This document shows positions 7,926-48,067 of a stretch of DNA of 64,000 bases, piece by piece. Each line of letters begins with the position of its first letter. Position 1 is the first letter of the stretch. Made by a program: the position numbers and the translations under genes. The notes under the pieces are model-generated. The model had not been told where the DNA came from, ran no database searches, and saw only the letters and a program-made list of their open reading frames with translations. Origin of the DNA: Phycisphaeraceae bacterium (GTDB lineage Bacteria > Planctomycetota > Phycisphaerae > Phycisphaerales > UBA1924); NCBI GenBank assembly GCA_019636625.1, contig JAHBXE010000020.1:1-64000 (forward strand). Reading direction: 5' to 3'.

Positions 7926-9290
7926 ATGAGAAGTCAACTGAATCGGTTCGGGCGGCGGGGGGTGGCGATTACGACTGTGTTCGGCCTGGCGGGGGCGATC
8001 GCGGCCCAGGACTGCCAGCCGTACTGGACTACGTTGCCGTTACTCTCTTTGCCGGGGTCGCCGCAGGTCACATACGTACCCCTCACAACAGCGGATGGGC
8101 CACAGCTCTTTGGCTACTCCTATCAATCAGCCCGAGATGAGTTGTATCGCTGGGCTCACTCTTCGTGGGTTCAGATGACACGCAAGGGCATTCCGGACAC
8201 GAGCGGCCTTTTATATCTTCAGGCTCTCAATGATGGGGCTGGGGTTCACCTCTACGTGCAGACGGGTACCCGTGGACCGCAGGCCACTCGGTACGCGACG
8301 AGACGGGCATACAAACTGGTTGGCGACCATTGGCACCCCATGCCCTTCAACTTCTGGTCAGGCCAGTTCCAGGCGCCGTTTCTGTCGGCGGACCTCGGCG
8401 ATGGCATGGCGATCTATGGGATCGACTTCTATGGGCGACCGGCCAAGTGGCTCGGGCACGAATGGGAAGCGCTCGGGCCACCCTCGAGTGCGGGCGATCT
8501 GAGGCATATCGAGATCGAACACAACGGGAACGGTCCGGCGTTGTTCGTATTTGGGGGGCTATGGCAGTTCGGGGGGCAAACTGGTTATGGATTCGCGATG
8601 ATGGAGAATGGCCAGTGGTCCGTTCCGAACTCCGGGGTCGTGCATAACCCGTACCAGAACTTCCCTTCGACGTGCGCCGTGACGTTTGACGACGGCACGG
8701 GGCCGGCGATGTACTCGGTCCGGGGTTTCCATCCCGGCTCGACCAACTACCCGTGCCTGTACCGCTTCCGCAACAACCAGTGGTCCGTCGCCGGGTGGCC
8801 CACGGGGACCCCGACGTCGTTCACGGGTGGCCAGGTCCTGACCATCTTCGACGATGGGCGCGGCCCGGCCATCTACGTCGCGGGGAGTTTCAACGATGTC
8901 AACGGTGTGCCCGCCAAGCACATCGCCAGGTGGGACGGACGGACATGGGAGCCGCTTGGTCCGGGTTTACTCGCCGGCTTTGGGAGCACTGCCGTCCACA
9001 TGGGCACGATCAACGATGCCTCCGGCCATTCGCTGGTCATCGCCGGCAACGTGGTGTACGCGGGCGGCGGAAGCCAGGGCAAGTGGCTCCTCAAGTGGGT
9101 CGGCTGCCCCAACTGCTACGCGGACTGCGACCTTTCGGGCGGTTCGCCCCGCCTGACGGCCAACGACTTCCTGTGCTTCATCACCAAGTACGCGGCGAAG
9201 GACCCCTACGCGAACTGCAACCTGGACAACGCCATCAACGCCGCGGACTTCCAGTGCTTCCTGAACCGGTACGCGGCGGGGTGCTCATAG
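7926..9290 (+). CDS. secreted beta-propeller-like repeat protein with conserved C-terminal Cys double-repeat domain
   Basis: Signal peptide. Repeated (A/I)RWDGxxWxxLG motifs. C-terminus is CYADCDLSGGSPRLTANDFLCFITKYAAKDPYANCNLDNAINAADFQCFLNRYAAGCS. Paralog of the gene at 31585-32985. Confidence 0.7.
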   Translation: MRSQLNRFGRRGVAITTVFGLAGAIAAQDCQPYWTTLPLLSLPGSPQVTYVPLTTADGPQLFGYSYQSARDELYRWAHSSWVQMTRKGIPDTSGLLYLQALNDGAGVHLYVQTGTRGPQATRYATRRAYKLVGDHWHPMPFNFWSGQFQAPFLSADLGDGMAIYGIDFYGRPAKWLGHEWEALGPPSSAGDLRHIEIEHNGNGPALFVFGGLWQFGGQTGYGFAMMENGQWSVPNSGVVHNPYQNFPSTCAVTFDDGTGPAMYSVRGFHPGSTNYPCLYRFRNNQWSVAGWPTGTPTSFTGGQVLTIFDDGRGPAIYVAGSFNDVNGVPAKHIARWDGRTWEPLGPGLLAGFGSTAVHMGTINDASGHSLVIAGNVVYAGGGSQGKWLLKWVGCPNCYADCDLSGGSPRLTANDFLCFITKYAAKDPYANCNLDNAINAADFQCFLNRYAAGCS

Positions 9291-9339
9291 GGGGCGCAAT
9301 CGGCCTCCCGGCGCGCGGGGCGTGATCGTGCAAGCCGCC

Positions 9340-9867
9340 TCACGCCGCATCCCGCTCCTGCTTGGCCCACGTAAACGCCCCGCGCAGAAAGCCTTTCTTC
9401 GGCTTGGTGAACGACTGCACCGCCTCGTGCACGTTCTCCGCCAGGATCATCTTCTTGTCCAGTTTCGTCACCTTGAAGACCTTCCGGATCTCCGGCGAGA
9501 GCGCAAAGAGCGCGAGATGCCCCCCAAGTTCGACGCACTTGGCGTGCACCGCCACCAGCGCGTTGATCCCCGACGAGTTCAGCGCCGAGACCTCCGACAG
9601 CGACACCGCCAGTTTCCCGTGCGACCGCTCCGCCACCGCCATCAGCCGCCGCTGCACCATGTCCGCCTGGTGCTCGCGGATCCCGCTCATGGAAAGAAAG
9701 ATCAGCGCCACGTTCTCCATCCCGCTCACCGTGATCAGGCCGTCGTCCGCCGCGGGCGGCGTGGCGTCCGTCCTCGCCGGCGGTGGGCAGGGAGAGGGCG
9801 GTGGGGGGGATGAAGTCGAATCCTGATCCAGCGTTTCAGGACCAAAGAGGTCGTTGGGCCGTCCCAT
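9340..9867 (-). CDS. STAS-domain protein (anti-sigma-factor antagonist-like)
   Basis: LITVSGMENVALIFLSMSGIREHQADMVQRRLMAVAERSHGKLAVSLSEVSALNSSGINALVAVHAKCVELGGHLALFALSPEIRKVFKVTKLD matches the SpoIIAA/STAS fold pattern. The start is uncertain. Confidence 0.55.
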   Translation of the reverse strand: MGRPNDLFGPETLDQDSTSSPPPPSPCPPPARTDATPPAADDGLITVSGMENVALIFLSMSGIREHQADMVQRRLMAVAERSHGKLAVSLSEVSALNSSGINALVAVHAKCVELGGHLALFALSPEIRKVFKVTKLDKKMILAENVHEAVQSFTKPKKGFLRGAFTWAKQERDAA

Positions 9868-10087
9868 GCAAGCAGCCTCCCGCGGCCCCGAACACCCGGG
9901 GCGTAGGGGAATATGGCAACCGCCGAACGCCGCGGCCATGTTCCGGCCCGCGCCGACGCCGCCCCGCGCCCGGATGTGACGATTGCCCGCCCCCTCCCGT
10001 TATCGCCCCGCGATCCGCGCGACAATCCCGGGAACCTACCGGACCGTCCGCGAACAGCGCGCGACCCAAGGCGGATAGCATGCGCCC

Positions 10088-11692
10088 ATGCCGCGGATCC
10101 AGTCCGTGCAACTCAAGGTCGGCCTCGAAGTCCACGTCGAACTGGCAACGCGGACCAAGATGTTCTCACGCTGCCCCAGCCCCGCTCATCCCGAGTTCGA
10201 CGGCGCCGAACCCAACTCCCTGATCGACCCCGTCGTGCTCGCCCTGCCGGGCGCGCTGCCCGTGATGAACCGCGCGGCGATCGAAATGGCCATGATGGTC
10301 GGCCTCGCCCTGAACTGCTCCATCGCCGAGCGGACCAAGTGGGACCGCAAGAGTTACTTCTACCCCGACCTGCCCAAGGGGTACCAGATCAGCCAGTACG
10401 ACCTTCCCCTCTGCTTCGACGGCGCTGTCGATGTCCCCGCGACCGACGACAAGGGCTTCATCATCCCCGACGCCGAGCCCGCCCGCATCGGCATCATCCG
10501 GGCCCACCTGGAAGAGGACGCGGGCAAGCTCCTGCACGAGGCTCCCGGCGGCGGCGCGATCGACTTCTCCATCGTGGACTGGAACCGTGCCGGCACACCC
10601 TTGCTCGAAATCGTCACCCAGCCCGACTTCACCCACGCCGACCAGGTCCTCAGTTTCGCCCGCATGCTCCGGAACATCTGTCGCTTCCTCGGCGTCACCG
10701 AGGGCATCATGCAAAAGGGCCACATCCGCTTCGAGCCCAACATCAACACCATCCTCACCCTCGACGACGGCAGAACCGCGACCACGCCCATCACGGAGGT
10801 GAAGAACCTGAACTCCTTCAAGGCCCTGCGCGGCGCGATCGAGCACGAACTCCGCGAGCAGCCCCGCCGCTGGCTCGGCGATGGCCGTGAGATGGGCGCG
10901 GGCCAGAAGCGCACCATGGGCTGGGATGATGCACGCCAGCAGACGTCCATCCAGCGCGAGAAGGAAGACGCCCACGACTACCGCTACTTCCCCGACCCCG
11001 ACCTGCTCCCCGTGGTCATCAGCCGCGCCTGGCGGGATGAAGTCGCCGCGCGCCTGCCCGAACTCCCCCTCGCTCGGCAGAAGCGGTACATGGAGATGTA
11101 CGCCCTGGCCGCCAAGGAGGCCGCGGCCCTGGTCGAGGAACGCGACGTCTGCCTGCTCTGCGAGGCCGCGATCGACGCCATGCAGCGCCGCGGGATGGAC
11201 GCCCCCCGCGCCGGCAGGGCCGCCGCCAACTTCATCCTGCAGAGCGGCGCCAAACGCGCCAACGAGCGCGACGTGCTCATCAGCGACCTGGGCATCACCG
11301 GCGATGAAATCGCGCAGATCGCCCTCCTCCGTGAGGAAGGCAAACTCAGCGCCGCGGGCGCGGATGAACTCTTCGGGATCCTCTGCGAGCCGGGGCGTCC
11401 CCCCGCCGGCGCGGCCACCCTCGGCGTACCCGAGCGCGATGTCGAAACCCTCGCCGGCGACCGGGGCCTGCTCATCATCCGCGACGACGCCGCCCTCGAC
11501 CGCTGGTGCGATGAAGTAATCGCCAAGAACGACAAGGTTGCCGCCGACGTCCGCGCCGGCAAGGCCGCGGCGATCGGCCGCCTCGTGGGCGAAGTGGTCA
11601 AACTCGCCGCCGCGCAGGGGCAAAGGGTCGATGCGAAGGTCGTGAGGGACGAGTTGGCGAAGAAACTGGGGGTATCCGAACCGCGACGGTAA
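10088..11692 (+). CDS. gatB: Asp-tRNA(Asn)/Glu-tRNA(Gln) amidotransferase subunit B
   Basis: MPRIQSVQLKVGLEVHVEL...KWDRKSYFYPDLPKGYQISQYD is the canonical GatB N-terminus. 534 aa. Confidence 0.9.
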   Translation: MPRIQSVQLKVGLEVHVELATRTKMFSRCPSPAHPEFDGAEPNSLIDPVVLALPGALPVMNRAAIEMAMMVGLALNCSIAERTKWDRKSYFYPDLPKGYQISQYDLPLCFDGAVDVPATDDKGFIIPDAEPARIGIIRAHLEEDAGKLLHEAPGGGAIDFSIVDWNRAGTPLLEIVTQPDFTHADQVLSFARMLRNICRFLGVTEGIMQKGHIRFEPNINTILTLDDGRTATTPITEVKNLNSFKALRGAIEHELREQPRRWLGDGREMGAGQKRTMGWDDARQQTSIQREKEDAHDYRYFPDPDLLPVVISRAWRDEVAARLPELPLARQKRYMEMYALAAKEAAALVEERDVCLLCEAAIDAMQRRGMDAPRAGRAAANFILQSGAKRANERDVLISDLGITGDEIAQIALLREEGKLSAAGADELFGILCEPGRPPAGAATLGVPERDVETLAGDRGLLIIRDDAALDRWCDEVIAKNDKVAADVRAGKAAAIGRLVGEVVKLAAAQGQRVDAKVVRDELAKKLGVSEPRR

Positions 11693-11756
11693 TGGAGCGG
11701 GTGCCTTCCGTATCCGAAGCGCGATACGAGACGAGACATCAAGTCTTCGCTCACCC

Positions 11757-12162
11757 AAATGGATTGATCACTTCCAAACCGGTGACCAGTCCACCGGGCG
11801 CATCTTCCGAGTACAACCTCGTCACCCCCCCCCTCAAGGCACGCCGCGATGATCATGGCATCCCAGAAAGCGATCCCGCGTTCGAGGTGCAACACCCGCG
11901 CCCGATCCAGCGTCGCCGCAGGCGGCATAAGGAGCGGAAAGAGTTTGACCAAAGTGGCAAGCCTCGACCAGGCATCCGCTTGCGTGAAGCCGTACGAGGC
12001 GAGCTTCCGTGAAGCCGCCACGAACTCACAGGCCACTTGCCATGGCATGACGGTGTTTCGCAGGTTGGCGATCAACTCGAACGCCCTTTGCTGCTTGTCG
12101 CGGTCCCGCGCATCGCAGGCATACAGCAGAATGTTCGTATCAACGGCGTTCATGAAGTTCAT
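11757..12162 (-). pseudogene. vapC: PIN-domain toxin VapC, frameshifted at a C9/G9 homopolymer
   Basis: MNAVDTNILLYA...FWDAMIIAACLEGG is a PIN domain. After the poly-C tract at 11825-11833 the frame reads on with no stop. A -1 shift in that tract gives TRLYSEDAPGGLVTGLEVINPFG*, a typical VapC end. Confidence 0.5.
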
Positions 12163-12370
12163 CCCGACTGGGATATCCGCCGCCGTTGGAAGTGAACTTC
12201 ATCCGGGCAACGCCTTCACGGAACTCCCGCAGCGCCTCCGCACGACCCGCCTCATCAGGCTGATCCAGCGACTCCACGATCACACGCACACGTTCATGTT
12301 CGCGGAGCGTCAGCTTGCCCTCGGGCTTGAGGACGCCATTGGCGAAGATGGCTTCGGTGACCTGCGTCAT
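12140..12370 (-). CDS. type II antitoxin (DUF104/VapB-like)
   Basis: MTQVTEAIFANGVLKPEGKLTLREHERVRVIVE is the characteristic antitoxin N-terminus. It lies immediately upstream of vapC and overlaps it. Confidence 0.5.
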   Translation of the reverse strand: MTQVTEAIFANGVLKPEGKLTLREHERVRVIVESLDQPDEAGRAEALREFREGVARMKFTSNGGGYPSRDELHERR

Positions 12371-12437
12371 CGCTCCAAGTGTATCGGTCAAAACGGTCGA
12401 ACGCACCACCACAAGGCGGGTCGTACCATCCTCCCCC

Positions 12438-13751: not shown

Positions 13752-13932
13752 CCGAGCCGAGGGGTCCAGCGCCCGAACGCCCTTGGGGCGCACCACCACC
13801 GGTTGTGTGCCGCCGAAAAACTGGCGAATCCGCGCCGGTTTTTCTGAAACTGTCCATGCAACCTGCCAAAGATGCTCGTGACGCCGGCCGTCTCGCTTCA
13901 CACGCACACCCGGCGTCCGCGGGGAGATTCAC

Positions 13933-15615: not shown

Positions 15616-15643
15616 TCCTTCGTCGATCCGCACCCCGGCCCCC

Positions 15644-16840: not shown

Positions 16841-16853
16841 ACCGGGACACTGA

Positions 16854-25606: not shown

Positions 25607-25752
25607 GCTTACGTGCAGCCCGCGGCGAACTTGTTCAGGAAGCACTGGAAGTCGTTGGCCGTGAGCAGCGGCGTCCCCGTGGACCCGTCGCAGTTGGCGT
25701 ACGTGTCGCCCGCGGCGAACTTGTTCAGGAAGCACTGGAAGTCGTTGGCCGT
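25607..25752. repeat. 90-bp-period tandem duplication inside the C-terminal domain coding region
   Basis: GCCCGCGGCGAACTTGTTCAGGAAGCACTGGAAGTCGTTGGCCGTGAGCAGCGGCG occurs twice, 90 bp (30 codons) apart. The two copies are ~56 nt and identical. Confidence 0.8.
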
Positions 25753-27267
25753 GAGCAGCGGCGAACCCGACGACTGGTCGCAGTTCGCGTAGCACGCCGC
25801 CGGCGGAGGCGCGCCGGGCACATGGGCCGCCGCGGTGATCGTGTCAACATACCCGGTCAGCGGCTTGTAGTAGCCCAGCGTGACGCTGCCGTTCGAGGCC
25901 GGCGCCACGTTCGCGATGAACCGGAAGTTGCACATCGTGCCCCAGCGGATGTAGCTGCCCAGCGTCGGCGTCGCGGCGTTCCACGTGTTGGGCGAGGCCC
26001 ACACGAGTTGCGACCCCGTGTTCGTCTGCGTCCACGCCGCGTTCCGGTTCGCATCGTCCGCCACCGAGCCCGAGTGGCACATGATCTGCCGCATCTCGAT
26101 ATTGGACACCGTCGCCCCGGCGGGAATGTTGACCCGGAACGACCCGACACCCCGGTCCGAGTTCAGGTTGAACACGGCGTACTCATAGTTCCAGAACCCG
26201 CCGCCCAGGTCCGTGGCCTTCGAGGCGACATAAATCCAGCCGTCGCCGTCGGGCGTCACCAGCGTCGTGCCCGCCCCCTGCGCACCGTTGTACGGATACG
26301 CCGGCTGCGAGAAGAACGTCTGCCCGCACGACACTTCCGTGATCATCACGCTGTTGTCCGGCGTGTTGACCCCGTTGCCGTGATCGCGCCACGCGAAGAT
26401 CGCCGGCTTGGTCCGCTGCGTCCCGTTCAAGCCGCCGCCCTGCGAACCGGTAAGCGTGATACTCGTCCCGTTGCCGTTCACCGTGAACCGCCGGTACGAC
26501 GCGTTGTTCTTCGAGTTGCCGAAGCTCGCATCGTCCCGCGTGATGTAGATCGCTTCACCGAAGTACAGCGCGCCCGGGTTCAGCGCCGCGTTGAAGTCGT
26601 CCTTGTGCACCCGCAGCCGCCGCGACGTCCCGTCCGTCGTCGCCGGCCAGGCGTTCCGAACCGCCGTGCTGTCCGGGAACACACCCGTGAACGGGTTGCA
26701 CTCGTACCGCGGGCCGGCCGAGCTCTGCGTCGCGTTCCGGCTCGCTGTGTACGGGTCCGAGCACCCCATCCCCAGCACCGATCCGCCCGAGCCGTTGCAC
26801 CCGATGCTGCACACGTTCTGCGTCAGCGCCGTGAACGCGTACTTGCTCCAGCTGTACCCGATCTGCTCAAACCGGGTCGCCCCGTTCACCGTCTTCAGCC
26901 GGTACATGTTCTGGGGAATGATCGGGTGGAACGGCGTGTTCGACCGCCACAGCAGGTTCTGACCGTTCGAGTTGACCGTGCTGATATTGCACGATGTGGT
27001 CCCAAGGCCGTACGCGTAGTACGGATCCACAAAGGATGAACTTGAGGTGGTCGTATCGCCCGACCCCGTGTTCTCAATCTCACCAACGATCACGTCCGGT
27101 CCGCCGCCCGCGTCAGTGCCCCCGCCCGACACCGGGTACACCCGGTTCAGCGCCGACTGCAGCACAGGATTGTCCGCGAACTTGTCCGACACCTGGCCAT
27201 GGGCCGCGGCCGAAACCACAGACCCCGCCACAGCCGACACCACAAGCGTGCTTCGACGAGTCTTCAT
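25609..27267 (-). CDS. secreted protein with conserved C-terminal Cys double-repeat domain
   Basis: Signal peptide MKTRRSTLVVSAVAGSVVSAAAHG. C-terminus is CYANCDQSSGSPLLTANDFQCFLNKFAAGDTYANCDGSTGTPLLTANDFQCFLNKFAAGCT. Confidence 0.7.
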   Translation of the reverse strand: MKTRRSTLVVSAVAGSVVSAAAHGQVSDKFADNPVLQSALNRVYPVSGGGTDAGGGPDVIVGEIENTGSGDTTTSSSSFVDPYYAYGLGTTSCNISTVNSNGQNLLWRSNTPFHPIIPQNMYRLKTVNGATRFEQIGYSWSKYAFTALTQNVCSIGCNGSGGSVLGMGCSDPYTASRNATQSSAGPRYECNPFTGVFPDSTAVRNAWPATTDGTSRRLRVHKDDFNAALNPGALYFGEAIYITRDDASFGNSKNNASYRRFTVNGNGTSITLTGSQGGGLNGTQRTKPAIFAWRDHGNGVNTPDNSVMITEVSCGQTFFSQPAYPYNGAQGAGTTLVTPDGDGWIYVASKATDLGGGFWNYEYAVFNLNSDRGVGSFRVNIPAGATVSNIEMRQIMCHSGSVADDANRNAAWTQTNTGSQLVWASPNTWNAATPTLGSYIRWGTMCNFRFIANVAPASNGSVTLGYYKPLTGYVDTITAAAHVPGAPPPAACYANCDQSSGSPLLTANDFQCFLNKFAAGDTYANCDGSTGTPLLTANDFQCFLNKFAAGCT

Positions 27268-31584: not shown

Positions 31585-32985
31585 TCACGGACACCCCTGC
31601 GCGTACTTGTTCAGGAAGCACTGAAAGTCCGCGGCGGTCATCACCGGCAAAACCGTGCTGCCGTCGCAGTTGGCGTAGGGGTCCTTCGCGGCGTAGGTGT
31701 TGAGGAAACAGATGAAGTCATTGGCGTTGAGAATCCGGTTGTTGTCGCAATCGGCGTAGCACTGCCCGCCCTTGCAGCCCACGTACTGGGCGATCCGCGT
31801 CACGGACCCGCCACCGGCAGAAAAAATGTCGCCGACCACAAACAGCGACTCGCCGCGCCCGTCGTTGGCCACGGCCATCTGCGTTGCGGCCGCCCCGATC
31901 CCCGCCCCCAGGGGCGCCCAGACCTGCCCGTTCCACTTGGCGATGTTGCGCGCGGGGACGCCGCCGGCCAACGAGAACGCGCCGGAGGCGATAAGGGCCG
32001 GGCCCGTACCGTCGTCGAAGACGGTCATCGCGAACACACCGCCCTGAAGATTGGGATCAGGGAATCCAACCCCGCCGCCGACTCCCACCCACGTGCTGCC
32101 GTTCCATCGGACGATGCCCTGCAGCGCCAGGCCGCTGCCGACGGCGGGAGATGCCGCCCTGAATCCCGCGTAGAGCGACAGGCCGTGAACGCCATCGTCG
32201 TAGGCGCACATCGCGTTGGGCCAGAACACGGCGGTGGGATGCGCCCCGGGAAGATCTGCCATTCCAAGCCATCGGTGTCCGTTCCAGCGCGCCATGCCGC
32301 GAGCGGGCACCCCGCTGATCTCTTCGAAAAAGCCGGACACAATCAGTTCCGGACCCTCGCCGAAGTCGAAGGTGAACATGGGTTGATAGGAAACCGGGCC
32401 GCTTCCCTCAGCCATGCGGCCTATTCGCTTCCACGCTTCTCCGGTCCATCGCAGGATCCAATCCGCCCGCTCCGGCTCGAACCCGTGGCGCTCCACACCA
32501 TACAGGCCCGCTATACCTTCTTGGTCCGTAGAGAACATCGGAGAAATGGAAACGCCATGACCCGGGGTAGGATTCACGTACATACCAAATGGTACTGGTC
32601 GCCACCTCACGTGGCGACGCCACATGTACATGGTCCGCACCTGGCCCGCGCCGACACCGATGTAATACAGCCCGAGCCCCTGACCATCGTGAAGCATGCG
32701 AAAGCCGTTCTGCACGCCGGAGCCCAGTGACGCCGCACCAGCGACTTGCCATGCAAAGCCGTCCCACCGGCGCACGGGGTTCTGCGCCAGCGGGTAGTAC
32801 CCGAACCCCGCCCCATAGACTGAGTGCCCTTCGCCAAAGTCCGCGGCGTAAATGCTGTTCACGAAACCATCCGCGGGCACCGGGACGGCCTTCCAGTACG
32901 GCTGGCATTCCTGAGCAAGGCTGCTTCTCGCCAAGGCCGCCATTGCGAGAAGGCATGCAACAGCAATCGCACTCGTGCTTCGCAT
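31585..32985 (-). CDS. secreted beta-propeller-like repeat protein with conserved C-terminal Cys double-repeat domain
   Basis: Signal peptide. (A/I)RWNGxxWxxLG repeats. C-terminus is CYADCDNNRILNANDFICFLNTYAAKDPYANCDGSTVLPVMTAADFQCFLNKYAQGCP. Confidence 0.7.
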   Translation of the reverse strand: MRSTSAIAVACLLAMAALARSSLAQECQPYWKAVPVPADGFVNSIYAADFGEGHSVYGAGFGYYPLAQNPVRRWDGFAWQVAGAASLGSGVQNGFRMLHDGQGLGLYYIGVGAGQVRTMYMWRRHVRWRPVPFGMYVNPTPGHGVSISPMFSTDQEGIAGLYGVERHGFEPERADWILRWTGEAWKRIGRMAEGSGPVSYQPMFTFDFGEGPELIVSGFFEEISGVPARGMARWNGHRWLGMADLPGAHPTAVFWPNAMCAYDDGVHGLSLYAGFRAASPAVGSGLALQGIVRWNGSTWVGVGGGVGFPDPNLQGGVFAMTVFDDGTGPALIASGAFSLAGGVPARNIAKWNGQVWAPLGAGIGAAATQMAVANDGRGESLFVVGDIFSAGGGSVTRIAQYVGCKGGQCYADCDNNRILNANDFICFLNTYAAKDPYANCDGSTVLPVMTAADFQCFLNKYAQGCP

Positions 32986-33000: not shown

Positions 33001-34693
33001 TCAGGGCGCCGGGGTGTACCTGTACTTGCGGGTCACGATGTCGTCGCCGTTGGTTGTACCGTTGAACACGTTGCCCGTGACGACAAAGTTGTGCGCACTG
33101 TCTCCGGCGATGGGCGGGTTGAGCTGCATCTTCATCGGGCGGTCGATGCCCGTCGGGAAGCCCGTCAGGTTCAAAATGGCATTGCCATCCACCGCTTTGA
33201 GGGTTGGCGTCTCCGGTTCAGCGGTGTCCTGGCTCGTGAATACCGCGACCCGCCAGTCCACATCGCCCGCCGCGACCGGTGACTGGCCCATCACGTACAC
33301 GCGGTACCCATTCGAATCGTTGACCTGACTCGCATCCTTTACATCCATCGCGACCCCCGTGCAGGTGTCGAAGATATCGACCACGGGATCATTCTGTTCC
33401 TTGTTCAACCACGCCGACCAGCGCAGGTCCTCCCCCATGTACAGGCACACCAGCGAATCCCGGCCGCGGCTGCTGTCCCGGTACCCGTTGCCCGCCACCG
33501 CGATAAAGTCGCCAAACGACTCGGGGATTTCGGTGGTCGGGTGGATCGTCACCGCCAGCGCCTCGTTGTAACCCGGATCCTGGCCGCGTGCGTTATACGC
33601 AGCACCCCATACGGGCGGGCTGACGGATGTGAAGTTGAACTTCACGGTCAGCATGTACACCGTGTCAACCCCCGACACCCGTCCCACGCCGACGGCATAA
33701 TCACGCACTACACCGTCGTTGATCCCGTCCATCGCGTTGGCCTTGACAACCGAGTGCTCGCTCGGCGCCGGGTACTCGATCTCAAAACGCTCCCAGGCCC
33801 CACTCACCGCCCTGTACTTGAACGCCTTAAGGGAGTTGCCCATCACGCCGTCGTTCATGGTCGCCACCACGTAGGCAACGCCAGTCTCGCCGGAGATCTG
33901 ATCCATGACCATGTGATTCCAGCACCCGGCCGCAAGGTCGTTCCCGTTCGTGCTTGCTTCGACTTCCCAGTTGACCGCCTTTCCGTTCGAGATCTGGTGG
34001 AACACCGTCACCACGTCCCAGTTGAAGCCGTTGAACGTGTTCCCGGTCACACACGCCACATTGGTGCCCGGCCAGATGGAAAGGTCCACCGGGTACTCAT
34101 CGACCTGCAGCGCCGTTTCCAACGCGATCGGCGCCGTGAACTTCTGGTCCCAGCGCACCACCAGATTCCCGTTGAAGCACACCGTCCGAAAGTCCGTGTT
34201 CCCCGTGTCGGGCGCGGAGGAATACCCGGTGACCAGAACGTATGTCTTCTCAGGCTCATCGTGTTCAGTCTCTTGGACGACTTTCATCGCCACGGGCACA
34301 AAGTAGTCCGTCGCCGAAGGCTGACCGGGGTGCAAGAACGACTGCGAGCACGAGGCATCGCCGATGCAATCCCCCGTGGCGTAGTCATACCGTTTGATTA
34401 CCAGCGTCCACCCGCCCCCCCAGTTTCCTTCGATGTAGGTGCGCCCGGCGACGAACGTCACCGGTCGGGCGACGTTGTCGACCTTCATGTTGACGGTCTG
34501 CGTGCCGACCGCGCTGTCCCCAAGCGCCGCCCCCCCTTCGCCGTTGTAGGGCGGGGGCCACATCGGGTGCGGAGGGTTCGCGACCGGCCACATCTCCGCG
34601 ATCGATGACTGCCCCAGAACGGGCTCAGCACCCATACCCCCCCCCCCACAACACCCCCACAACCCCCCAAACCAGCCCAGTTCTCCGCTTCAT
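33001..34693 (-). CDS. secreted hypothetical protein, N-terminus interrupted at a G11 homopolymer
   Basis: Main ORF is 553 aa with no recognised domain. The ATG at 34693 encodes the signal-peptide-like MKRRTGLVWGVVGVLWGGG in another frame. It joins the main frame only if the 11-nt C/G tract at 34637-34647 changes length. Confidence 0.5.
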
Positions 34694-35449: not shown

Positions 35450-36244
35450 CTACTTCTCCTCCTTGACCGCATCCGCCGCCCGCTCCGGCTCCTCCCCCTC
35501 CTTCGATCCCGCCTTCCCCTTCCACACCCCCGGCGTGAACGAATCCTGCCCCAGCAGCGGCCCCTCCGCCGTTTCCCGCTCCACGCTGCCGCGGCTCACC
35601 AGCGGCGCTTCTTCCTTCCGCTTCGCCCCCGCCACCGCCTCCGCATCGCCCCACCACACGCAGTGCACCACCGCCCCATCCGGCGCGATCAGTTGCACGC
35701 AATCGCCCTTGTTCGCCAGCCCCACACGCGATGAGTCCACCCCCATCGTGAACACCAGCGCCCCGCCGAACTTCCCGTTGCCACCCTCCGGCGCCGCCTT
35801 GGCCGTCCCCACCGGCCCCGTCCACTTCGCCCCGTGCCCGTTGAACACCACCGCCACCTGCCCGGGCTTGAGCTCCACCGCCGGGAACCGGAACCGCAGA
35901 GATGTGTACGCCTTCCCGTCCTTCTCCAGCGCCCGGTCCGCCAGCACGTACCCCCCCAGTTGGATCGGCGCGTCATGCACGTTCACCAGCTCGATGAACT
36001 CATCCCCGTTCACATCCCGCACCCCGTCCCCGTTCGCATCCCCCGCCGCCCCAGGCGCCACCGCGTACAGGATCTCCGTGATGAGCGGGTGCCGCTCTGT
36101 CCGTTCAGCCGCCTTCTCCGACGGCTTCTCCCCGTCCTTCCGCGCTTCCCTCCCCGGCCCCGCGGGCTGACCCATGCCCGCCACGATCAACGCCAAGACA
36201 CCCGAGGCAAGACCCGTGAACATCCCGGCCGGACCCGCCATCAC
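35450..36244 (-). CDS. lamin-tail-domain (LTD) protein
   Basis: LITEILYAVAPGAAGDANGDGVRDVNGDEFIELVN is the LTD signature. A signal/TM segment is present. Confidence 0.6.
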   Translation of the reverse strand: MMAGPAGMFTGLASGVLALIVAGMGQPAGPGREARKDGEKPSEKAAERTERHPLITEILYAVAPGAAGDANGDGVRDVNGDEFIELVNVHDAPIQLGGYVLADRALEKDGKAYTSLRFRFPAVELKPGQVAVVFNGHGAKWTGPVGTAKAAPEGGNGKFGGALVFTMGVDSSRVGLANKGDCVQLIAPDGAVVHCVWWGDAEAVAGAKRKEEAPLVSRGSVERETAEGPLLGQDSFTPGVWKGKAGSKEGEEPERAADAVKEEK

Positions 36245-37121: not shown

Positions 37122-38003
37122 ATGAAAGCCGCCCTCCTCTTGGCCACCTTCGCCACCCCCGCCCTCGCCCAGCCCCCCATCCACGTCGTCCTCGACATGG
37201 ACCCCGCCACCCCCGGCATCCAGAACTCCATCACCATACCCGCCCGCACCACCACGCTCCGCGGACTCGCCGTCTATATCTACGACCCCCTCGCCTCGCG
37301 CACCATCCGCGGCATCGGCTACCTCGGCGGCCTCGACCGCGGCATCGCCCTCGGCCACCAACCGTCCAACCTCCACACCGGCTCCATCACCGCCCTCACC
37401 GGCCACCTCGGCTCCCCCCTCATCCCCAACGCCAACCACTACCTCACCAGCGGCGTCCAGAAAGGCTTCGCCGGCCCCGAGATCCACTACATCCAGACCA
37501 ACGGCGCCCCGACCACGCTCCCCGCCGCGCCGCTCACTCCTGTGTTCACCGTCGATGTCCACCTCGCCAACGCCTCCCCCGGCGACATCTACACCCTCGC
37601 CCTCCTCGACATGGTCGCCGTCTGGCGAGGCAAGGGCGGCGCCTTCACCACCCAGCCCGGCAACGGCCTCGACACCGGCGGCGACGCCAACCCCGAGGGC
37701 ACCCAGACCGCTCTCGGCCCCGACCCCGATCCCCCCGCCCCCGTCCCGCCCGCCTCCTTCCTCGTCGACTACATCGACGGCCTCCAGGGCTGGGGCGGCG
37801 CCCGTATCGTTGTGTCTTGCTACGCCAACTGCGACGGTTCCACGGGAACACCCTCCCTCAGCGCCAACGACTTCCAGTGCTTCCTCAACAAAGTCGCGCA
37901 GGCCGACCCCTACGCCAACTGCGACCAGTCCACCGGAACCCCGGTGCTCACCGCCAACGACTTCCAGTGTTTCCTGAACGCCTTTGCCGGAGGGTGCCCG
38001 TGA
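37122..38003 (+). CDS. secreted protein with conserved C-terminal Cys double-repeat domain
   Basis: Signal peptide MKAALLLATFATPALAQP. C-terminus is CYANCDGSTGTPSLSANDFQCFLNKVAQADPYANCDQSTGTPVLTANDFQCFLNAFAGGCP. Confidence 0.65.
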   Translation: MKAALLLATFATPALAQPPIHVVLDMDPATPGIQNSITIPARTTTLRGLAVYIYDPLASRTIRGIGYLGGLDRGIALGHQPSNLHTGSITALTGHLGSPLIPNANHYLTSGVQKGFAGPEIHYIQTNGAPTTLPAAPLTPVFTVDVHLANASPGDIYTLALLDMVAVWRGKGGAFTTQPGNGLDTGGDANPEGTQTALGPDPDPPAPVPPASFLVDYIDGLQGWGGARIVVSCYANCDGSTGTPSLSANDFQCFLNKVAQADPYANCDQSTGTPVLTANDFQCFLNAFAGGCP

Positions 38004-39406
38004 CGACTTCACCATACCGCGTTGTCCCGACCGCTTTCGGCCTTGCTCTCCTCGCCGGGCTTCCTGTCTCTGCCCAGCCGTGCATCTGGGAGTACACACC
38101 CGCTTCGTCCAGCCCCGGCCTTCGCTTCTTCCAGTCAACCGCCTACGACGCTGGACGCGACCGCATCGTCCTTTTCGGCGGATCCCAGTCAACCTATCTC
38201 GGCGACACATGGGAATGGGATGGGTCCGCCTGGCTCCTCCGCTCGACGACCGGACCATCCCCGCGATCGCGTGCCGCCATGGCCTACGACTCCGTTCGCT
38301 CCAAGGTCGTCCTCTTCGGCGGCATGGCCTCGCCAACGGCCTATCTGAACGACACGTGGGAGTGGGACGGCTCCACATGGACGCGCCTGGCCGACGCGCC
38401 GCCACAGGTCAACTTCTCCGCCATGGCCTTCGACTCGGTCCGCGGCCGAACGGTCGCCCTGGGCGGCTCGGCGCTCCGACACACCCTCGAGTGGGACGGC
38501 GCATCGTGGACGGTCAATCCGGCTCAGGGCCCCAACGAACCCGCCGGCAGCACCATGGTCTTCGACGCCGCGCGCGCCCGCATCATTCTCGCCGCCGCGG
38601 GCCTTGGTCCCAACGCCCCAATGCTCATCTTTGAGTACGACGGCGTCTCATGGACCCAACGCCCGTCCACCAACGCCCCGCCCGCACGTCAAAGGGCCGC
38701 CGCCGCTTTCGATCCGATCCGCCGGCGCCTCATCCTCACCGGCGGGCTTACCGGCTCGCAACTGATCGCCAAGGACACCTGGGAGTGGGATCCGACCACC
38801 GCCGAATGGTCCCGCCGTGCCGAATACCTCCCCTGGATCCGCCCGACGCCGTCGATGGCCTGGGACTCCGCCCGCGGCAAGGCGGTGCTCATCGGCCGGC
38901 CCAATGTCGCCAGCGACATCGAAGTCTGGTACCACAACGGCGCGGGCACGTCCGAGTTCCAGATCGCCCAACCGCCGCAGAATCTCTCCATCGACATCTT
39001 CGAACCGGTCCAGTTCTCCGTCGTCGCGCCAAACGCGACCGCCTTCCGGTGGTACCTCAACAACGCGCCCCTCACCGACGGTCCCCTGGTCTCAGGCGCA
39101 TCCACCGACACGCTCTCGATCTCCTACACCACGTTCAGCTCCGCTGGCACGTACACCGTCGTCGCGCACGGCCACTGCGGCCCCGCCTATGCCAGCGCCA
39201 CCCTCTCGATTGCCCCCAACAGTTGCTACGCCAACTGCGATACATCAAGCGGGTTCCCGGTGCTGACCGCGGGCGACTTTCAGTGCTTCCTCAACAAGTT
39301 CGCCGCCGGCCACCCCTACGCGAACTGCGACGGCTCCACCGGCACGCCCCTGCTCACCGCCAACGACTTTGTGTGCTACCTGAACGCGTTTGTTCGGTGC
39401 CAATAG
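38000..39406 (+). CDS. secreted Kelch-repeat protein with conserved C-terminal Cys double-repeat domain
   Basis: GTG start overlaps the upstream stop (GTGA). Signal peptide. Five (D)TWEWDGxxW Kelch-like repeats. C-terminus is CYANCDTSSGFPVLTAGDFQCFLNKFAAGHPYANCDGSTGTPLLTANDFVCYLNAFVRCQ. Confidence 0.65.
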   Translation: MTTSPYRVVPTAFGLALLAGLPVSAQPCIWEYTPASSSPGLRFFQSTAYDAGRDRIVLFGGSQSTYLGDTWEWDGSAWLLRSTTGPSPRSRAAMAYDSVRSKVVLFGGMASPTAYLNDTWEWDGSTWTRLADAPPQVNFSAMAFDSVRGRTVALGGSALRHTLEWDGASWTVNPAQGPNEPAGSTMVFDAARARIILAAAGLGPNAPMLIFEYDGVSWTQRPSTNAPPARQRAAAAFDPIRRRLILTGGLTGSQLIAKDTWEWDPTTAEWSRRAEYLPWIRPTPSMAWDSARGKAVLIGRPNVASDIEVWYHNGAGTSEFQIAQPPQNLSIDIFEPVQFSVVAPNATAFRWYLNNAPLTDGPLVSGASTDTLSISYTTFSSAGTYTVVAHGHCGPAYASATLSIAPNSCYANCDTSSGFPVLTAGDFQCFLNKFAAGHPYANCDGSTGTPLLTANDFVCYLNAFVRCQ

Positions 39407-39829: not shown

Positions 39830-39844
39830 CGCACTATCCTTTCC

Positions 39845-39903: not shown

Positions 39904-39908
39904 GTCCT

Positions 39909-41198: not shown

Positions 41199-41223
41199 GA
41201 GAAGTTCCCGTCGGTGGCTTCCA

Positions 41224-41844: not shown

Positions 41845-42007
41845 GACACACCTCGCGTCCATTTGTCCAATCGTGGGCAGCCGGCGCATCTCATATACAT
41901 GGTAATGTGCTTCCCGGTTGCTCTGGCGCCGTGAAGAGTGTGAGTCGTACTCGAAACGACATGCGAGGGCTCGTTGCCGGGTGTTCTCTCGCTGAGGAGT
42001 TGCCACC

Positions 42008-43381: not shown

Positions 43382-44340
43382 GTGCGCGATGGCGCCTTCA
43401 GTCGTCGAGCGAGTTCTCCGGCGCGTTCGTCGTCATTGTGCAAGAACAGCACATTCTCAGTTCGAGAAGGACGCCACGATCGAGTCACTGGCAGGAGACC
43501 AAGATCCCATCGACGAGCCCACCTCCGCCAGTCGATGGTCAACCCAAATGCCTCGTACCCCGATTCCTGCAGCAGTCCAAAGAGTTCTTCCACGCTCGTG
43601 CCATTGGCCGGAAGCATCTCATTGTTCACCTCAGCAACGATCGCCGGGCGAGCAGATTCCAGCGTTCGGGCGAAGCCCCGCAGAGCCGCGGTTTCGTGTC
43701 CCTCAACATCCAGCTTGATGAGCGAGGGTGCGCCTATCCCCGCAAGCAGTTCGTCTCCCCGGCGAACAGGCACCTCATAGTGCCCGCCCTCGCGACCACC
43801 GTGCCGAGAGGGAAGTCGCCCCAGCGTGGCCGCCCCCGTGTTGCCTGTGGGGGGCAGGGTCAATCGCATCGAGCCGTTGTGATCGCTCAACGCCACGCAG
43901 TGAAGCTGCACCATGTCCAACACATTCTCGGTGACGTGCCACCGCAGTTCGTCGAACACCACAGGGTTCGGCTCGACCGCCACGACTCGACCAGCCGGGC
44001 CCACCAGCCGTGCCGCAAGCATCGTCAGCATCCCGATGTTCGCTCCGGCATCGACAAAGAAATCGCCAGGTCGCAGCAGCGCACGCATCGCGAGTTGGAC
44101 ATGTACATCGAGCAATCGACCGTAAAACCACGCGCCACGCTGGTGGTAGTCGCGCGAATCCAGTCGCATCCGATAGCCGTGCCACACGCCGCGGCATTCT
44201 CGCAGTCCCCCGTTGCGCCAGCGTTCATTCTCCCAGGCGCCCAGGCGACGAAGCACTTTCGCCGTCAAAGGCATGCTCCGCCGAGCCCACCACGCGGCCA
44301 ATCGAACGTCAATCCGGTCAATGCGGGGTGTCGCTTCCAC
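43378..44340 (-). CDS. FkbM-family methyltransferase
   Basis: VDAGANIGMLT and IKLDVEGHE are FkbM motifs. Confidence 0.65.
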   Translation of the reverse strand: MEATPRIDRIDVRLAAWWARRSMPLTAKVLRRLGAWENERWRNGGLRECRGVWHGYRMRLDSRDYHQRGAWFYGRLLDVHVQLAMRALLRPGDFFVDAGANIGMLTMLAARLVGPAGRVVAVEPNPVVFDELRWHVTENVLDMVQLHCVALSDHNGSMRLTLPPTGNTGAATLGRLPSRHGGREGGHYEVPVRRGDELLAGIGAPSLIKLDVEGHETAALRGFARTLESARPAIVAEVNNEMLPANGTSVEELFGLLQESGYEAFGLTIDWRRWARRWDLGLLPVTRSWRPSRTENVLFLHNDDERAGELARRLKAPSRT

Positions 44341-44559
44341 GGCTGAGCGTACTCCACGAATGCGACTGTGGCGCGCGAGTCAGAGAGCCGTCAAGTCCAC
44401 GTTTGTGCGCTCACGGCCGCCCCATCTATTCCCGAACGGTCAACCCGCCGTATCCTCCAGAATACCCCACAATCCAAGCTCATTTACCTCTTCTTACCTT
44501 TTCCCCTCCACCCCCGTGCGCACAAACCCGCCCCCGGCCCCCCCTGTAGAGGAGGGCCT

Positions 44560-45559
44560 CATGTCCACCCTGCCCATCACCACTCCCGTCCAGATCCTCC
44601 CGCCCCTCCGCCTCGCCCAGCCGCCCGATCCCCCGGCCGTCCCCTCGCCCCTTCAAGTCCCATCCGCAACCATCCCCGCGCCCGCTCCTTCCACCTTCGA
44701 CCGCCTCTCCCCCGCCGCGCGCGATCAGATCCTCACCCAGTTCTCCAACTCCAACGCCGACCTCCCCAACATCGCCGTCGGCCGCGGCCTCACCCTCGTC
44801 GAACTCCTCGACTTCTTCGAAGACCCCCGCACCCAGGACATCCTCGACCGCCTCGAACGCCTCGCCCGCCGCCGCGCCGACCACGCCCAGGCCCTCACCC
44901 AGCACACCGCCGTCGAGGCCCTCCGCCTCATCGTCCAGTCCTACCTCAACGCCGAGTACAACCGCCTCACCCCCAACGACTCCCGCTCCCAATCCATCTT
45001 CCGCCGCCACCAGGAATCCGCCCGCCGCTCCGCCAACTCCCTCCTCCGCCCCATCCCCCATCCCCATCGGAACCGCGACCATAAGGGAGCGGAAACCTCC
45101 AACAGACCAACGCGCCCCTTGAGCCCGCAATCACTCGGCCAACTTCAACAGACCCCCAACTCCTCCGCGCCCCACCCGGTCACCAACTCCCCCCACCCAA
45201 CACCACACAAAGCCGAGTCTTCTTTCCCCCTTCCGCGCCCATTCGCGGCTCCTCTCTGTCTTGATCCTGGTTTACACCCATCCGCTCCACTCGCCGCCCC
45301 TCCAACTTCCTCTCGCCATCCGTGCCCATCCGTGCCATCTGTGGCTTCTTCTCTCCCTTCCTACCCGCCATCATCCCCAGCCACCCCCTCTTCCCTTCCG
45401 TCCCACGCCCCGCCATCCGCGGCCAAACCTACACCCCCGTCGACCCAAACCCTCCCACCCCCCGCGCCGTCATCTCAAGTTCCGTCACCTCTTCCACCTT
45501 CACATGCGCCACCGGCGCAATCACCATCTGCGCAATCCGCAGCCCGTGCGTCACCGTGA
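44560..45559 (+). CDS. hypothetical Pro-rich protein (doubtful 3' end)
   Basis: ATG with a GAGGAGG RBS. The N-terminal ~150 aa look protein-like. The C-terminus is low-complexity and overlaps dut convergently. Confidence 0.3.
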
Positions 45560-45869
45560 ACGCCTCCCGCCCAAGATTGATCAGCGGAACCAGCACCTCG
45601 CCCCGGTAGTCCGCATCAATCGTCCCGGGGCTGTTGGGCAGCGTGATCCCATGCTTGCTCGCCAGCCCGCTCCGCGGCCGCACCTGCGCCTCAAACCCCA
45701 CCGGCACCGCCACCGCAATCCCAGTCCGGATCATCGCGATCCGCCCCGGCGCAATGATCAACTCCCCATCCGGCACAAACGCCGAAAGGTCCAGCCCCGC
45801 CGCCAACTCGCTTTGATAGCACGGGATCGATGCGCCTGGATCAAGTTTGCGGATGCGGAGGGTGGGCAT
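45429..45869 (-). CDS. dut: dUTP diphosphatase
   Basis: MPTLRIRKLDPGASIPCYQSELAAGLDL...GRIAMIRTGIAV...PRSGLASKHGITLPNSPGTIDADYRGE are dUTPase motifs 1-5. Confidence 0.85.
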   Translation of the reverse strand: MPTLRIRKLDPGASIPCYQSELAAGLDLSAFVPDGELIIAPGRIAMIRTGIAVAVPVGFEAQVRPRSGLASKHGITLPNSPGTIDADYRGEVLVPLINLGREAFTVTHGLRIAQMVIAPVAHVKVEEVTELEMTARGVGGFGSTGV

Positions 45870-45984
45870 GCCGCAAGAGTAGCGTGTGATGGCCGGAGGG
45901 CGTCGGTGTTGAAGACTCCGAGTTGCGATTGGGTCCCCAGCCAAAGAAGAATTCTCCCGTGCTGGGTTGCAATCCTGTGCCGGT

Positions 45985-47192
45985 ACGTCATGCTTTCACG
46001 GGGGTGTGGACGGGGAATCGTCGAGTTGGTCCCATTGCCTCCAGTCCGTTTGCGTTGTCGAGAAGATCGATGGCGTGCGCTCGCGGCGGCACTTGCGACG
46101 CTGATCGGTGTCACTACAGCCTGGGGTCAGCCCGGTCCAGCCGTCGGTTGGGGGGGCAATACCGGCGGGCAGGCATCGCCACCCGCGGGCGGCTTCAGTG
46201 CGGTGGTCGGCGGCGTCGGCTTTAGTCTCGGTGTCATCGAGGACGGCACGCTGTTGGGGTGGGGTGACAACTTCCACGGTCAGCTCAATGTCCCGGCTGG
46301 AACGTTCAGGGCGGTGGCCGCCGGCGATGGACACGGGGTGGCTTTGCGAACAGATGGCACGCTCGAGGCCTGGGGCCTTAATGTCGTGGGGCAAGCGGTT
46401 GCTCCGGCGGGCACCTACACGGCGATCGCTTCTTGCTTCTTCCACAATATTGCCATTAGGGCCGACAGTACTTTGGTTGGCTGGGGTTACAACATGTATG
46501 GCCAGACCAACGTGCCAACCGGTACGTTTCGGGCGATCGCCACCGGTGACCATCACGGCATCGGGGTGCGCACGGACGGTACGCTTGCACATTGGGGTCG
46601 GGATGCACATGGTCTCTCGAACGTCCCGACGGGTCAGTTCACGGCAGTTGCGGCAGGTACCGATTTCAGCCTCGCGCTACGAACCGATGGGACGCTGGTT
46701 GGCTGGGGTTACAACAACTTCGGCCAGGCGTCAGTCCCCTCCGGCACGTTTATTGGTATCGCAGCTGGCGCAAACTTTGGCTTGGGCCTTCGAAGCGATG
46801 GGCAGCTGGTCGGGTGGGGCCGAAACAACTCGGGCCAAGCGCAGCCTCCCGCGGGTACGTTCACGTTCGTTGCCGCAGGGTACAACCACGGACTGGCCAT
46901 TGTCCCCGCACCCGGCTCGCTAGTGTGCGGAGGACTTGTCATGGCGTCGCTGCTTCGGCGTCCGCGTCGTAGCGGAGCCCAAAGGTACCGCAGTGAAACC
47001 CGGGAGGTGATATGGAGAGCTTTCTTCGGGACCGCAGGCGGCTTGTGGCCGGTTTACTGTTTTGTTGTGGCGGAAAGAGTGTCCTTGCACAACCGGCATC
47101 TCTCGTCGGCTGGGGTCGAAACGACGATGGACAGGCGACGGTGCCCTCCGGCGACTTCAAGTGTGTGGGGGCGGGAAGCAATCACAGTGTAG
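45985..47192 (+). CDS. secreted RCC1-repeat protein with internal PEP-CTERM-like motif (end uncertain)
   Basis: Signal-like RWRALAAALATLIGVTTAWGQP, then ~7 RCC1 repeats (GWGxNxxGQxxxPxGTF...). VPAPGSLVCGGLVMASLLRRPRR at 46902-46973 resembles PEP-CTERM. The ORF continues 74 codons into the next gene. Confidence 0.5.
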
Positions 47193-48067
47193 GAGTGAAA
47201 GCGGACGGTACCCTCGCAGGCTGGGGCGATAACTTCTTCGGTCAAACCACGGTGCCAAGCGGCACGTTCACGTCCGTTGTGGGTGGCCGCGGCCATAGCA
47301 TCGGACTGAAGAGCGATGGAACCCTTGTGGCATGGGGGGACGACGGCTGGCTCCAAGTCAGCGATGTCCCATCCGGTAGTTTTGTGGTGGTTGCGGCCGG
47401 GTTCCACCATGGGCTCGCCATCCGCACTGACGGATCCTTGGCCGGCTGGGGGAAGAACAACTTCGGGCAAGCCACTGTCCCGAGCGGAACGTTCATCGCC
47501 GTCGCTGGCGGCTATGACTTCAGCATCGGGCTTCGATCCGATGGGTCCATCGAAGCGTGGGGCGAGGACACTTCCGGGCAAGCGTCACCTCCAAGCGGCA
47601 CATTCACCGCCATCGCCGCCGGGTGGCACCATGGCATAGCCATCAAGTCGGACGGAACTCTCGCGGGCTGGGGTGACAACACGTACGGACAAATGAACGT
47701 TCCAGCGGGGACGTTCGTCGCCGTTGCAGCCGGTCTCGACCACAGTCTTGGTCTTCGCGGGGATGGGACCATCGTGGGGTGGGGCGACAACACACACGGC
47801 CAACTTAACATTCCATCAGGAGAGTATTGGCGTCTCGAAGTCGGGAGCGCGAGCCTTGGCCATGCCATGGCGATTCGCGGCTGCTGGGTGAACTGCGATG
47901 AGAGCACTGGGAATCCCGCGCTCACCGCCAACGATTACCAATGCTTCATCAACAGGTACGCCGCCAACGACCCCTGGGCCAATTGCGACGGCAGCACGGG
48001 CAACCCATCCCTCACCGCCAACGACTACCAGTGCTTTCTCAACAAGTATGCCGTCGGTTGTTCGTAG
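47012..48067 (+). CDS. secreted RCC1-repeat protein with conserved C-terminal Cys double-repeat domain
   Basis: RBS GGAGGTGA, signal peptide, RCC1 repeats. C-terminus is CWVNCDESTGNPALTANDYQCFINRYAANDPWANCDGSTGNPSLTANDYQCFLNKYAVGCS. Confidence 0.7.
   Translation: MESFLRDRRRLVAGLLFCCGGKSVLAQPASLVGWGRNDDGQATVPSGDFKCVGAGSNHSVGVKADGTLAGWGDNFFGQTTVPSGTFTSVVGGRGHSIGLKSDGTLVAWGDDGWLQVSDVPSGSFVVVAAGFHHGLAIRTDGSLAGWGKNNFGQATVPSGTFIAVAGGYDFSIGLRSDGSIEAWGEDTSGQASPPSGTFTAIAAGWHHGIAIKSDGTLAGWGDNTYGQMNVPAGTFVAVAAGLDHSLGLRGDGTIVGWGDNTHGQLNIPSGEYWRLEVGSASLGHAMAIRGCWVNCDESTGNPALTANDYQCFINRYAANDPWANCDGSTGNPSLTANDYQCFLNKYAVGCS

Follow-up and report, generated by a model that had tools for sequence, protein, structure and literature searches.

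What is the tail shared by six proteins encoded in a 64,000-nucleotide stretch of a planctomycete genome, and to what does it attach them? The stretch (contig JAHBXE010000020.1, positions 1 to 64,000 of the forward strand; hereafter, the window) belongs to a metagenome-assembled genome (MAG) of a Phycisphaeraceae bacterium, and the six genes in question, denoted g1 to g6, are all labelled 'hypothetical protein' in GenBank (locus tags KF678_13245 to 13380). A first-pass annotation of this DNA had drawn attention to their common C-terminal double repeat with six conserved Cys residues and had put it forward as a candidate undescribed sorting or anchoring domain. We assign the tails, with high confidence, to an already catalogued family, the GC-type dockerins, which derives from classical dockerins, and tentatively point to a cohesin-like domain in one of the six proteins, g4, as their docking partner.

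The six open reading frames (ORFs) were found, upon translation, to end in a double repeat of 58-61 aa, delimited here from its first Cys, which opens the motif C[YW][AV][ND]C, to the last residue of the chain, with exactly six Cys per copy. In 5 of the 6 copies, the chain terminates in Gly-Cys plus one residue, the remaining copy, that of g5 (38000-39406), ending in RCQ. We constructed a hidden Markov model (HMM) of the six tails; its search of all six frames of the window under the --max option produced exactly six matches, with E values of 1e-31 to 1e-39, every one of them abutting the stop codon of its ORF. The next best match had an E value of 3, so the window holds no further copies of the module, and the likeness of the six tails is far beyond chance, bearing out the original observation. 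DNA identity among the tails of different window genes is 64-78%, which argues against recent gene conversion and indicates that the likeness has been conserved rather than freshly copied. The sole exception among the tails is found within g2 (25609-27267), the two half-repeats of which are 92% identical in DNA and, judging by this identity, look recently homogenised.

The module is not undescribed, as had been supposed. All six tails score 28.1-35.6 bits against the NCBIfam model NF041540 ('dockerin_GC', GC-type dockerin domain-anchored protein), five of them passing the curated cutoff of 29 bits and g4 falling just below it at 28.1 bits. The model also matches 96 of 96 full-length representatives of the family (best E 6.9e-22). 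We take the Gly-Cys ending as a trait of NF041540 from the family name. Alignments of the window tails with six Cys and 15-residue loops often begin only at position 14-17 of the model. Thus, the domain itself is already known, and the window tails are new members of a catalogued family. The suspicion of novelty nevertheless retains some ground: although the family is named, it is uncharacterised, with no paper, structure or identified partner on record, and our literature search for NF041540, dockerin_GC, 'GC-type dockerin' or 'dockerin domain-anchored' returned no paper and, hence, neither a cohesin partner nor an experiment. What is new here is the candidate cohesin-like partner, the evolutionary series of tails, and the evidence on scale and position presented below.

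The carriers combine the tail with different passengers. Signal peptides were recognised by visual inspection alone; across 96 family members, the consensus starts M...AxAQ. The protein encoded by g1 (7926-9290, +) carries a signal peptide and a beta-propeller-like passenger, for which Pfam offers merely a faint DUF5122 propeller match, followed by a 58-aa module (9114-9287; NF041540, 32.7 bits). Its paralogue g3 (31585-32985, -), related to g1 over the full length (32% identity, E 1e-57), likewise ends in a 58-aa module (31588-31761; 33.8 bits). The g2 protein (25609-27267, -) joins a signal peptide to a passenger without a known family, apart from a faint GEVED match in Pfam, and a 61-aa module (25612-25794; 35.6 bits). 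A signal peptide, a Kelch propeller and an immunoglobulin (Ig)-like domain (Pfam Kelch and Ig_3) precede the 60-aa module (39224-39403; 30.4 bits) of g5 (38000-39406, +), whereas g6 (47012-48067, +) has a signal peptide and an RCC1-repeat propeller (RCC1_2, E 2.7e-50) ahead of its 61-aa module (47882-48064; 30.9 bits). The passenger of g4 (37122-38003, +) is considered separately below. Accordingly, the view that the N-terminal regions are unrelated does not hold for the paralogues g1 and g3. The mature chains of this pair begin with AQ(D/E)CQPYW, and an extra Cys directly precedes the module in each (VGCPNC and VGCKGGQC); it may belong to a disulfide that joins the N-terminal to the C-terminal end of the propeller and so closes it. 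The genes just upstream of g1 and g3 (6195-7838, + and 33001-34662, -, respectively), neither of which has a match in Pfam, were considered as a duplicated partner cassette, and this idea was rejected because the two are unrelated (E 0.59). According to Pfam scans of about 40 neighbouring ORFs, the six carriers are dispersed among housekeeping genes (GatB, sigma-54, RecR, NuoD/E, FeoB) and do not form an island.

The resemblance of each half-repeat to a dockerin or EF-hand loop, remarked upon in the first-pass annotation, is supported by a structural model, a census of loops, a natural hybrid protein and the tails of g4 orthologues. In the AlphaFold2 model of the g2 tail, computed from 126 aligned sequences (mean predicted local distance difference test score, pLDDT, 88.5), helices span residues 25-36 and 55-67, each with a loop ahead of it; the module is thus predicted to be a compact domain of approximately 60 aa comprising two tandem loop-helix (F-hand) segments, which is the layout of type I dockerins. 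Across 776 fifteen-residue loops, conservation is nearly complete at N1 (99%), C2 (100%), D3 (100%), S5 (99%), P9 (99%), L11 (98%), D15 (100%), F16 (100%) and C18 (100%). If residues 7-9 are taken as an insert, the conserved polar positions coincide with the EF-hand/dockerin ligand positions 1, 3, 5 and 12. Of 774 loops, 753 carry this 3-residue insert, which extends the loop from 12 to 15 residues; the rare 12-residue loops, including the second loop of g1 (NCNLDNAINAAD) and the first loop of g3 (DCDNNRILNAND), keep the canonical spacing.

The most direct link to classical dockerins comes from the hybrid protein P0126, each module of which joins a Cys-free canonical half (DVNGDGVLNTGDF, DVNGDGVLNTGDFAAFQTAF) to a GC-type half (NCDGSTAKPVLNVGDFTCFLRSF). 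Its canonical half matches Pfam Dockerin_1 (PF00404) with 40.2 bits, against a gathering score of 22.9 bits, in addition to EF-hand matches. A second link is provided by orthologues of the g4 passenger (63 matches with 38-91% identity, 54 members aligned), the tails of which are of six kinds: (i) six Cys with 15-residue loops; (ii) six Cys with 12-residue loops; (iii) canonical, Cys-free loops enclosed between a leading Cys and a final Gly-Cys, and having only this outer C...GC pair, which obtain the top NF041540 scores, 54-58 bits; (iv) plain Pfam dockerins (25 of 54 at E<=1); (v) CTDs (C-terminal domains) resembling FlgD_ig or those of the type IX secretion system (T9SS; 6 members); and (vi) IPTL-CTERM-like tails (2 members, e.g., P0305 and P0313). 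This range suggests a graded series from the plain dockerin through the C...GC-bracketed dockerin to the six-Cys form, and the swaps indicate that the tail is an interchangeable anchor. The six-Cys module is, therefore, a derivative of the classical dockerin, homologous to its repeats.

The Cys residues come and go in pairs. In 764 of the 774 half-repeats, the Cys of loop position 2 is accompanied by that of helix position 15, and both are missing from the canonical halves of P0126 and from one ORF of the genomic locus L013. Similarly, the C...GC-bracketed canonical forms possess both the leading and the final Cys and P0126 neither, and mature g4 contains exactly 6 Cys, all within the tail. 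The paired presence and absence points to C1-C6, C2-C3 and C4-C5 as the likely pattern of disulfides. In dockerins, residues just before the first loop form a non-covalent 'intramolecular clasp' with the C-terminus, and a Tyr often occupies position -1 (Slutzki et al. 2013, PMC3821032). GC-type modules conserve this Tyr in 87% of cases and have a Cys next to it, at position -2, so that a C1-C6 bond would represent a covalent version of the dockerin clasp.

The family is very large. A filter-free HMMER search over 1.84 billion cluster representatives (clusters at 50% identity) recovered 5383 proteins at E<=1e-3, of which 3244 remain at E<=1e-10. At the scale of genomes, we analysed 76 genomic loci drawn from two Phycisphaerales MAGs, which hold at least 69 and at least 74 distinct carrier ORFs, with more than one carrier present at 46 of the 76 loci. 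The passengers include Ig domains, Kelch, RCC1 and DUF5122/Rax2 propellers, peptidases M14 and M10, pectate-lyase-like domains, HAF repeats, type V secretion system (T5SS)/PEP-CTERM-associated repeats, and choice-of-anchor J/I/Q domains, the latter named for the alternative anchors that they bear in other lineages (LPXTG, PEP-CTERM, T9SS) (bioRxiv 10.1101/2023.03.06.531300). As the first-pass annotation had proposed, the module is a C-terminal attachment to heterogeneous secreted passengers: no more than 3 aa separate the last module from the end of the protein or the stop codon in 135 of the 137 best new representatives, in 119 of 120 matches from a word-indexed search, where the final Gly-Cys is trailed by 0-2 residues, and in 144 of 145 modules from the 76 loci. 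Position was judged from the new representatives and the 76 loci; a match list that consisted only of proteins of up to 116 aa, mostly fragments or truncated gene calls, was not relied on by itself.

The rule has exceptions: modules are occasionally tandem, internal or N-terminal, although about 98% occupy the extreme C-terminus. P0121 and P0122 contain four half-repeats between one leading Cys and one final Gly-Cys, P0126 has three internal modules, and in P0149 (572 aa) the GC-type module is N-terminal, directly behind the signal peptide, a rare inverted architecture in which the downstream domain of roughly 480 aa has no Pfam match. Many short proteins encoded on long contigs (among them P0005, P0028, P0019, P0036 and P0040; 60-116 aa) scarcely extend beyond the module and lack a signal peptide; probably, these represent gene calls cut short or the pseudogene remains of carriers. 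One of these, P0005 (KF678_03685), comes from the same MAG as the window. P0028, together with P0084, is encoded on a 5.09-Mb contig labelled 'Leptolyngbya sp. 15MV', whereas all other named records of these tails that we examined belong to Phycisphaerales or Phycisphaeraceae; the taxonomic label of this assembly looks doubtful.

Which protein might receive the tails? The first-pass annotation had left the g4 passenger among unspecified others; it does follow a signal peptide, but it is not anonymous. This region (37173-37787, approximately residues 18-222) has a cohesin-like fold, a jelly-roll beta-sandwich of nine strands that can be superposed on cohesins of known structure, with no Pfam family at E<0.01. 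Followed by a 61-aa module (37818-38000), it gives g4 the order signal peptide, cohesin-like domain, GC-type dockerin, which is the architecture of adaptor scaffoldins. The stop codon of g4 overlaps the GTG start codon of the Kelch carrier g5 by 4 nt (GTGA), and GenBank calls the same gene. Furthermore, the order in which a cohesin-like/GC-dockerin gene is followed by one or two GC-dockerin genes is conserved in JBGAND01 (locus L037) and JBGANS01 (locus L077), from the MAGs with at least 69 and at least 74 GC-dockerin ORFs. In L077, the downstream genes are Kelch genes, and the wider neighbourhood is also the same as in the window (DUF4185, NuoE-like, lamin-tail domain [LTD], NuoD and Polysacc_synt_2). 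The LTD protein is encoded divergently upstream of the cohesin-like gene in both cases (35450-36244, - in the window; 3071-3763, - in L077); given that the whole region is syntenic, this link is not specific and serves only as a lead. On the strength of fold and gene order, we tentatively put the cohesin-like domain of g4 forward as a receptor for GC-type dockerins, a proposal that we hold with less confidence than the docking function of the tails as such.

With moderate confidence, we read the GC-type dockerin as a docking module of a non-cellulosomal cohesin-dockerin system. Sec signal peptides would direct the export of the carriers, whose module would fold and become oxidised outside the cytoplasm, with a disulfide from loop position 2 to helix position 15 probably stapling each of its two EF-hand-like loop-helix units and a third disulfide probably tying the ends of the module, from the Cys at position -2 relative to the first loop to the terminal Gly-Cys. 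The loops may bind Ca2+. Without being cleaved, the module would then dock dozens of passengers, among them propellers, Ig domains, peptidases and lyases, to a cohesin-type receptor, presumably at the cell surface, with the cohesin-like domain of g4 (37122-38003) as the best candidate. Since g4 itself bears a GC-type dockerin, it might serve as an adaptor or join into head-to-tail chains. A more speculative extension is a large display system of Phycisphaerales in which at least about 70 secreted proteins per genome, each with a triple-disulfide, covalently clasped dockerin, assemble on a cohesin adaptor of the g4 family that is invisible to Pfam and that, bearing the same dockerin, could itself build a scaffold by head-to-tail polymerisation. 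If so, the six-Cys form, as a redox-hardened dockerin, would be suited to oxic conditions outside the cell and would have its own binding specificity.

Several results weigh against this docking scheme. At the level of the tails, none of the four window tails that were scanned matched Pfam Dockerin_1 even at E<=10, the AlphaFold2 model of the tail retrieved no match from the PDB with Foldseek, and hhalign found nothing between the tail profile and a single Clostridium thermocellum CelS dockerin sequence. Some of the 12-residue loops carry Val at position 5, so that Ca2+ binding may be altered or lost. At the level of the receptor, 0 of 54 aligned g4-family members match Pfam Cohesin (PF00963) at E<=1, and an HMM of the cohesin-like domain run against the six window frames, the 76 loci and 257 family proteins detected only g4 and its L037 orthologue; no second cohesin-like gene, anchoring scaffoldin or cell-anchored receptor was identified in the same set. 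Finally, the T9SS or IPTL-CTERM tails of some g4 orthologues signify that this passenger is not tied to dockerin systems. Other searches of the tails yielded chance matches only: PTN_MK_C was the sole Pfam result on isolated tails at E<=10, and in the PDB neither one tail nor the 126-sequence profile found a real match by sequence, haptoglobin and ICAM-1 being dismissed as chance.

The same results lend themselves to an alternative that we consider unlikely but that survives better than the others, namely, that the module is derived from dockerins but has lost cohesin binding and instead binds an envelope glycan, peptidoglycan, an S-layer or outer-membrane protein, or itself, in which case the cohesin-like fold of g4 would be merely another passenger. 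This possibility would account for the lack of any cohesin recognisable by sequence in the window or the 76 related loci apart from the g4 family, for the imbalance of one cohesin-like gene to roughly 70 carrier genes per genome, for the association of the g4 passenger with T9SS and IPTL-CTERM anchors, and for the altered loops, with their 3-residue insert, Asn at position 1, and Ser, sometimes Val, at position 5. It is also in line with the widespread occurrence of dockerin-like modules without a known cohesin, as cited in PMC6461901 (reference 52 therein). The coupling of g4 to g5 and the conserved gene order speak against it, as does the pairing of the cohesin-like domain with some dockerin in most g4 orthologues, which is how adaptor scaffoldins are built.

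Far less probable is that the module is a C-terminal sorting signal, the idea advanced in the first-pass annotation by analogy with PEP-CTERM, MYXO-CTERM and the T9SS CTD. In this case, a dedicated secretion or processing machine, of the kind that exosortase represents for PEP-CTERM, would recognise the module and then remove or covalently attach it, perhaps with the terminal Cys as the attachment point. The attraction of this reading lies in the almost invariably C-terminal position, in the invariant Gly-Cys ending with 0-2 residues behind it, and in the fact that the same passengers bear true sorting signals elsewhere, the module trading places with T9SS-like and IPTL-CTERM signals in g4 orthologues. 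However, the tail has neither a transmembrane helix nor a basic cluster and is predicted to be a folded two-helix domain rather than a T9SS-type beta-sandwich; its Cys count is even and self-contained, so that the last Cys is probably engaged in a disulfide; tandem, internal and N-terminal copies exist in P0121, P0122, P0126 and P0149; and the repeats are homologous to those of dockerins. Moreover, Pfam scans of the approximately 40 neighbouring ORFs revealed no sortase, exosortase or protease consistently adjacent to the carriers, and no sortase-like or exosortase-like gene was present among the window ORFs scanned. The folded helical domain without a transmembrane or basic tail, the even Cys count, the tandem and non-terminal copies and the dockerin homology together make us confident that the module is an uncleaved docking or anchoring domain rather than a processed sorting signal, somewhat less so than of its family assignment. 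An origin of the six-tail likeness in chance, low complexity or faulty assembly can practically be dismissed, considering the HMM E values of 1e-31 to 1e-39 without background matches, the 5383 public clusters, and the presence of the six proteins or their close relatives in independent assemblies.

Other features of the window are mentioned here for completeness. Over the interval 12000-64000, the + strand shows a strongly negative GC skew (-0.2 to -0.36) between about 12 kb and about 46 kb, which gives way to positive values beyond about 50 kb, and the cumulative minimum is reached near 46-50 kb; the switch could correspond to a replication origin or terminus, or to an inversion boundary. 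On the - strand, Pfam scans revealed a restriction-modification or defence-like cluster in DNA of lower GC content (0.61; 55307-60098), comprising a T5orf172/MUG113 and ResIII helicase protein (55307-57820), an Eco57I-type methylase (57836-59437) and an MmeI_Mtase-like fragment (59400-60098). The same strand encodes a protein with a prepilin-type N-terminal methylation motif (51211-52050), flanked by two ORFs without a Pfam family (50228-51196 and 52057-53271), and the three genes (50228-53271) could form a pseudopilin or type II secretion-related cluster.

As a result of this analysis, six 'hypothetical proteins' can be named GC-type dockerin-anchored proteins, members of a family that reaches dozens of copies per Phycisphaerales genome, yet has no paper, structure or known receptor. 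The cohesin-like fold of g4, the 4-nt overlap with the Kelch/GC-dockerin gene and the tail swaps amount to a concrete and cheap hypothesis that points to a docking partner and to a route from the classical Ca2+ dockerin to a disulfide-stapled form. If the hypothesis is correct, cohesin-dockerin assembly would extend to the surface biology of Planctomycetota, and compact, covalently clasped dockerin-cohesin pairs would become available for protein engineering.

How does this system compare with those already known? PEP-CTERM, IPTL-CTERM, MYXO-CTERM and the T9SS CTD resemble the GC-type module in being located at the extreme C-terminus of varied secreted passengers and in being positionally interchangeable with it in orthologues. 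Unlike the three CTERM signals, the window tails have neither a hydrophobic stretch nor an Arg cluster, and unlike sorting signals in general, the GC module is helical, predicted to be disulfide-rich and occasionally tandem or non-terminal. The six window proteins do not match the T9SS CTD models (TIGR04183 and PF18962), T9SS-like tails being confined to some g4 orthologues. Scaffoldin cohesins of known structure (PDB 4uyp_A, 2vn5_A and 1ohz_A) share only 8-14% sequence identity with the g4 domain, which lacks a Pfam Cohesin match, and g4 has no more than one cohesin-like domain.

The classical dockerin of clostridial cellulosomes (PF00404) is similar in several respects. It, too, is a duplicated loop-helix module of approximately 60 aa at the C-terminus of secreted proteins, in which the helix begins around loop position 10, acidic or polar residues occupy the ligand positions, Tyr is found at position -1 and the termini are clasped; dozens of carriers are encoded per genome, and natural hybrids and tail swaps among orthologues link it to the GC type. 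The latter is set apart by six conserved Cys, the 3-residue loop insertion, and the replacement of Asp by Asn at position 1 and by Ser at position 5, the window tails scanned being without a PF00404 match. Furthermore, its passengers are mainly propellers, Ig domains and adhesin-like repeats rather than glycoside hydrolases, and the host is an aerobic-type member of Phycisphaeraceae rather than a cellulolytic member of Firmicutes. Another comparison is with the hypothetical 'planctosome', a non-cellulosomal cohesin-dockerin assembly on the surface of Phycisphaerae (Nemodlikiaceae), for which a lamin-tail-domain protein was proposed as the outer-membrane tether (Andrei et al. 2019, PMC6461901). 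The model described there builds on cohesin and dockerin modules with peptidases as cargo and makes no mention of Cys-rich GC-type tails, and in the present case Pfam detects neither dockerin nor cohesin, but here as well an LTD gene (35450-36244, -) adjoins the gene for the cohesin-like protein, both in the window and in L077.

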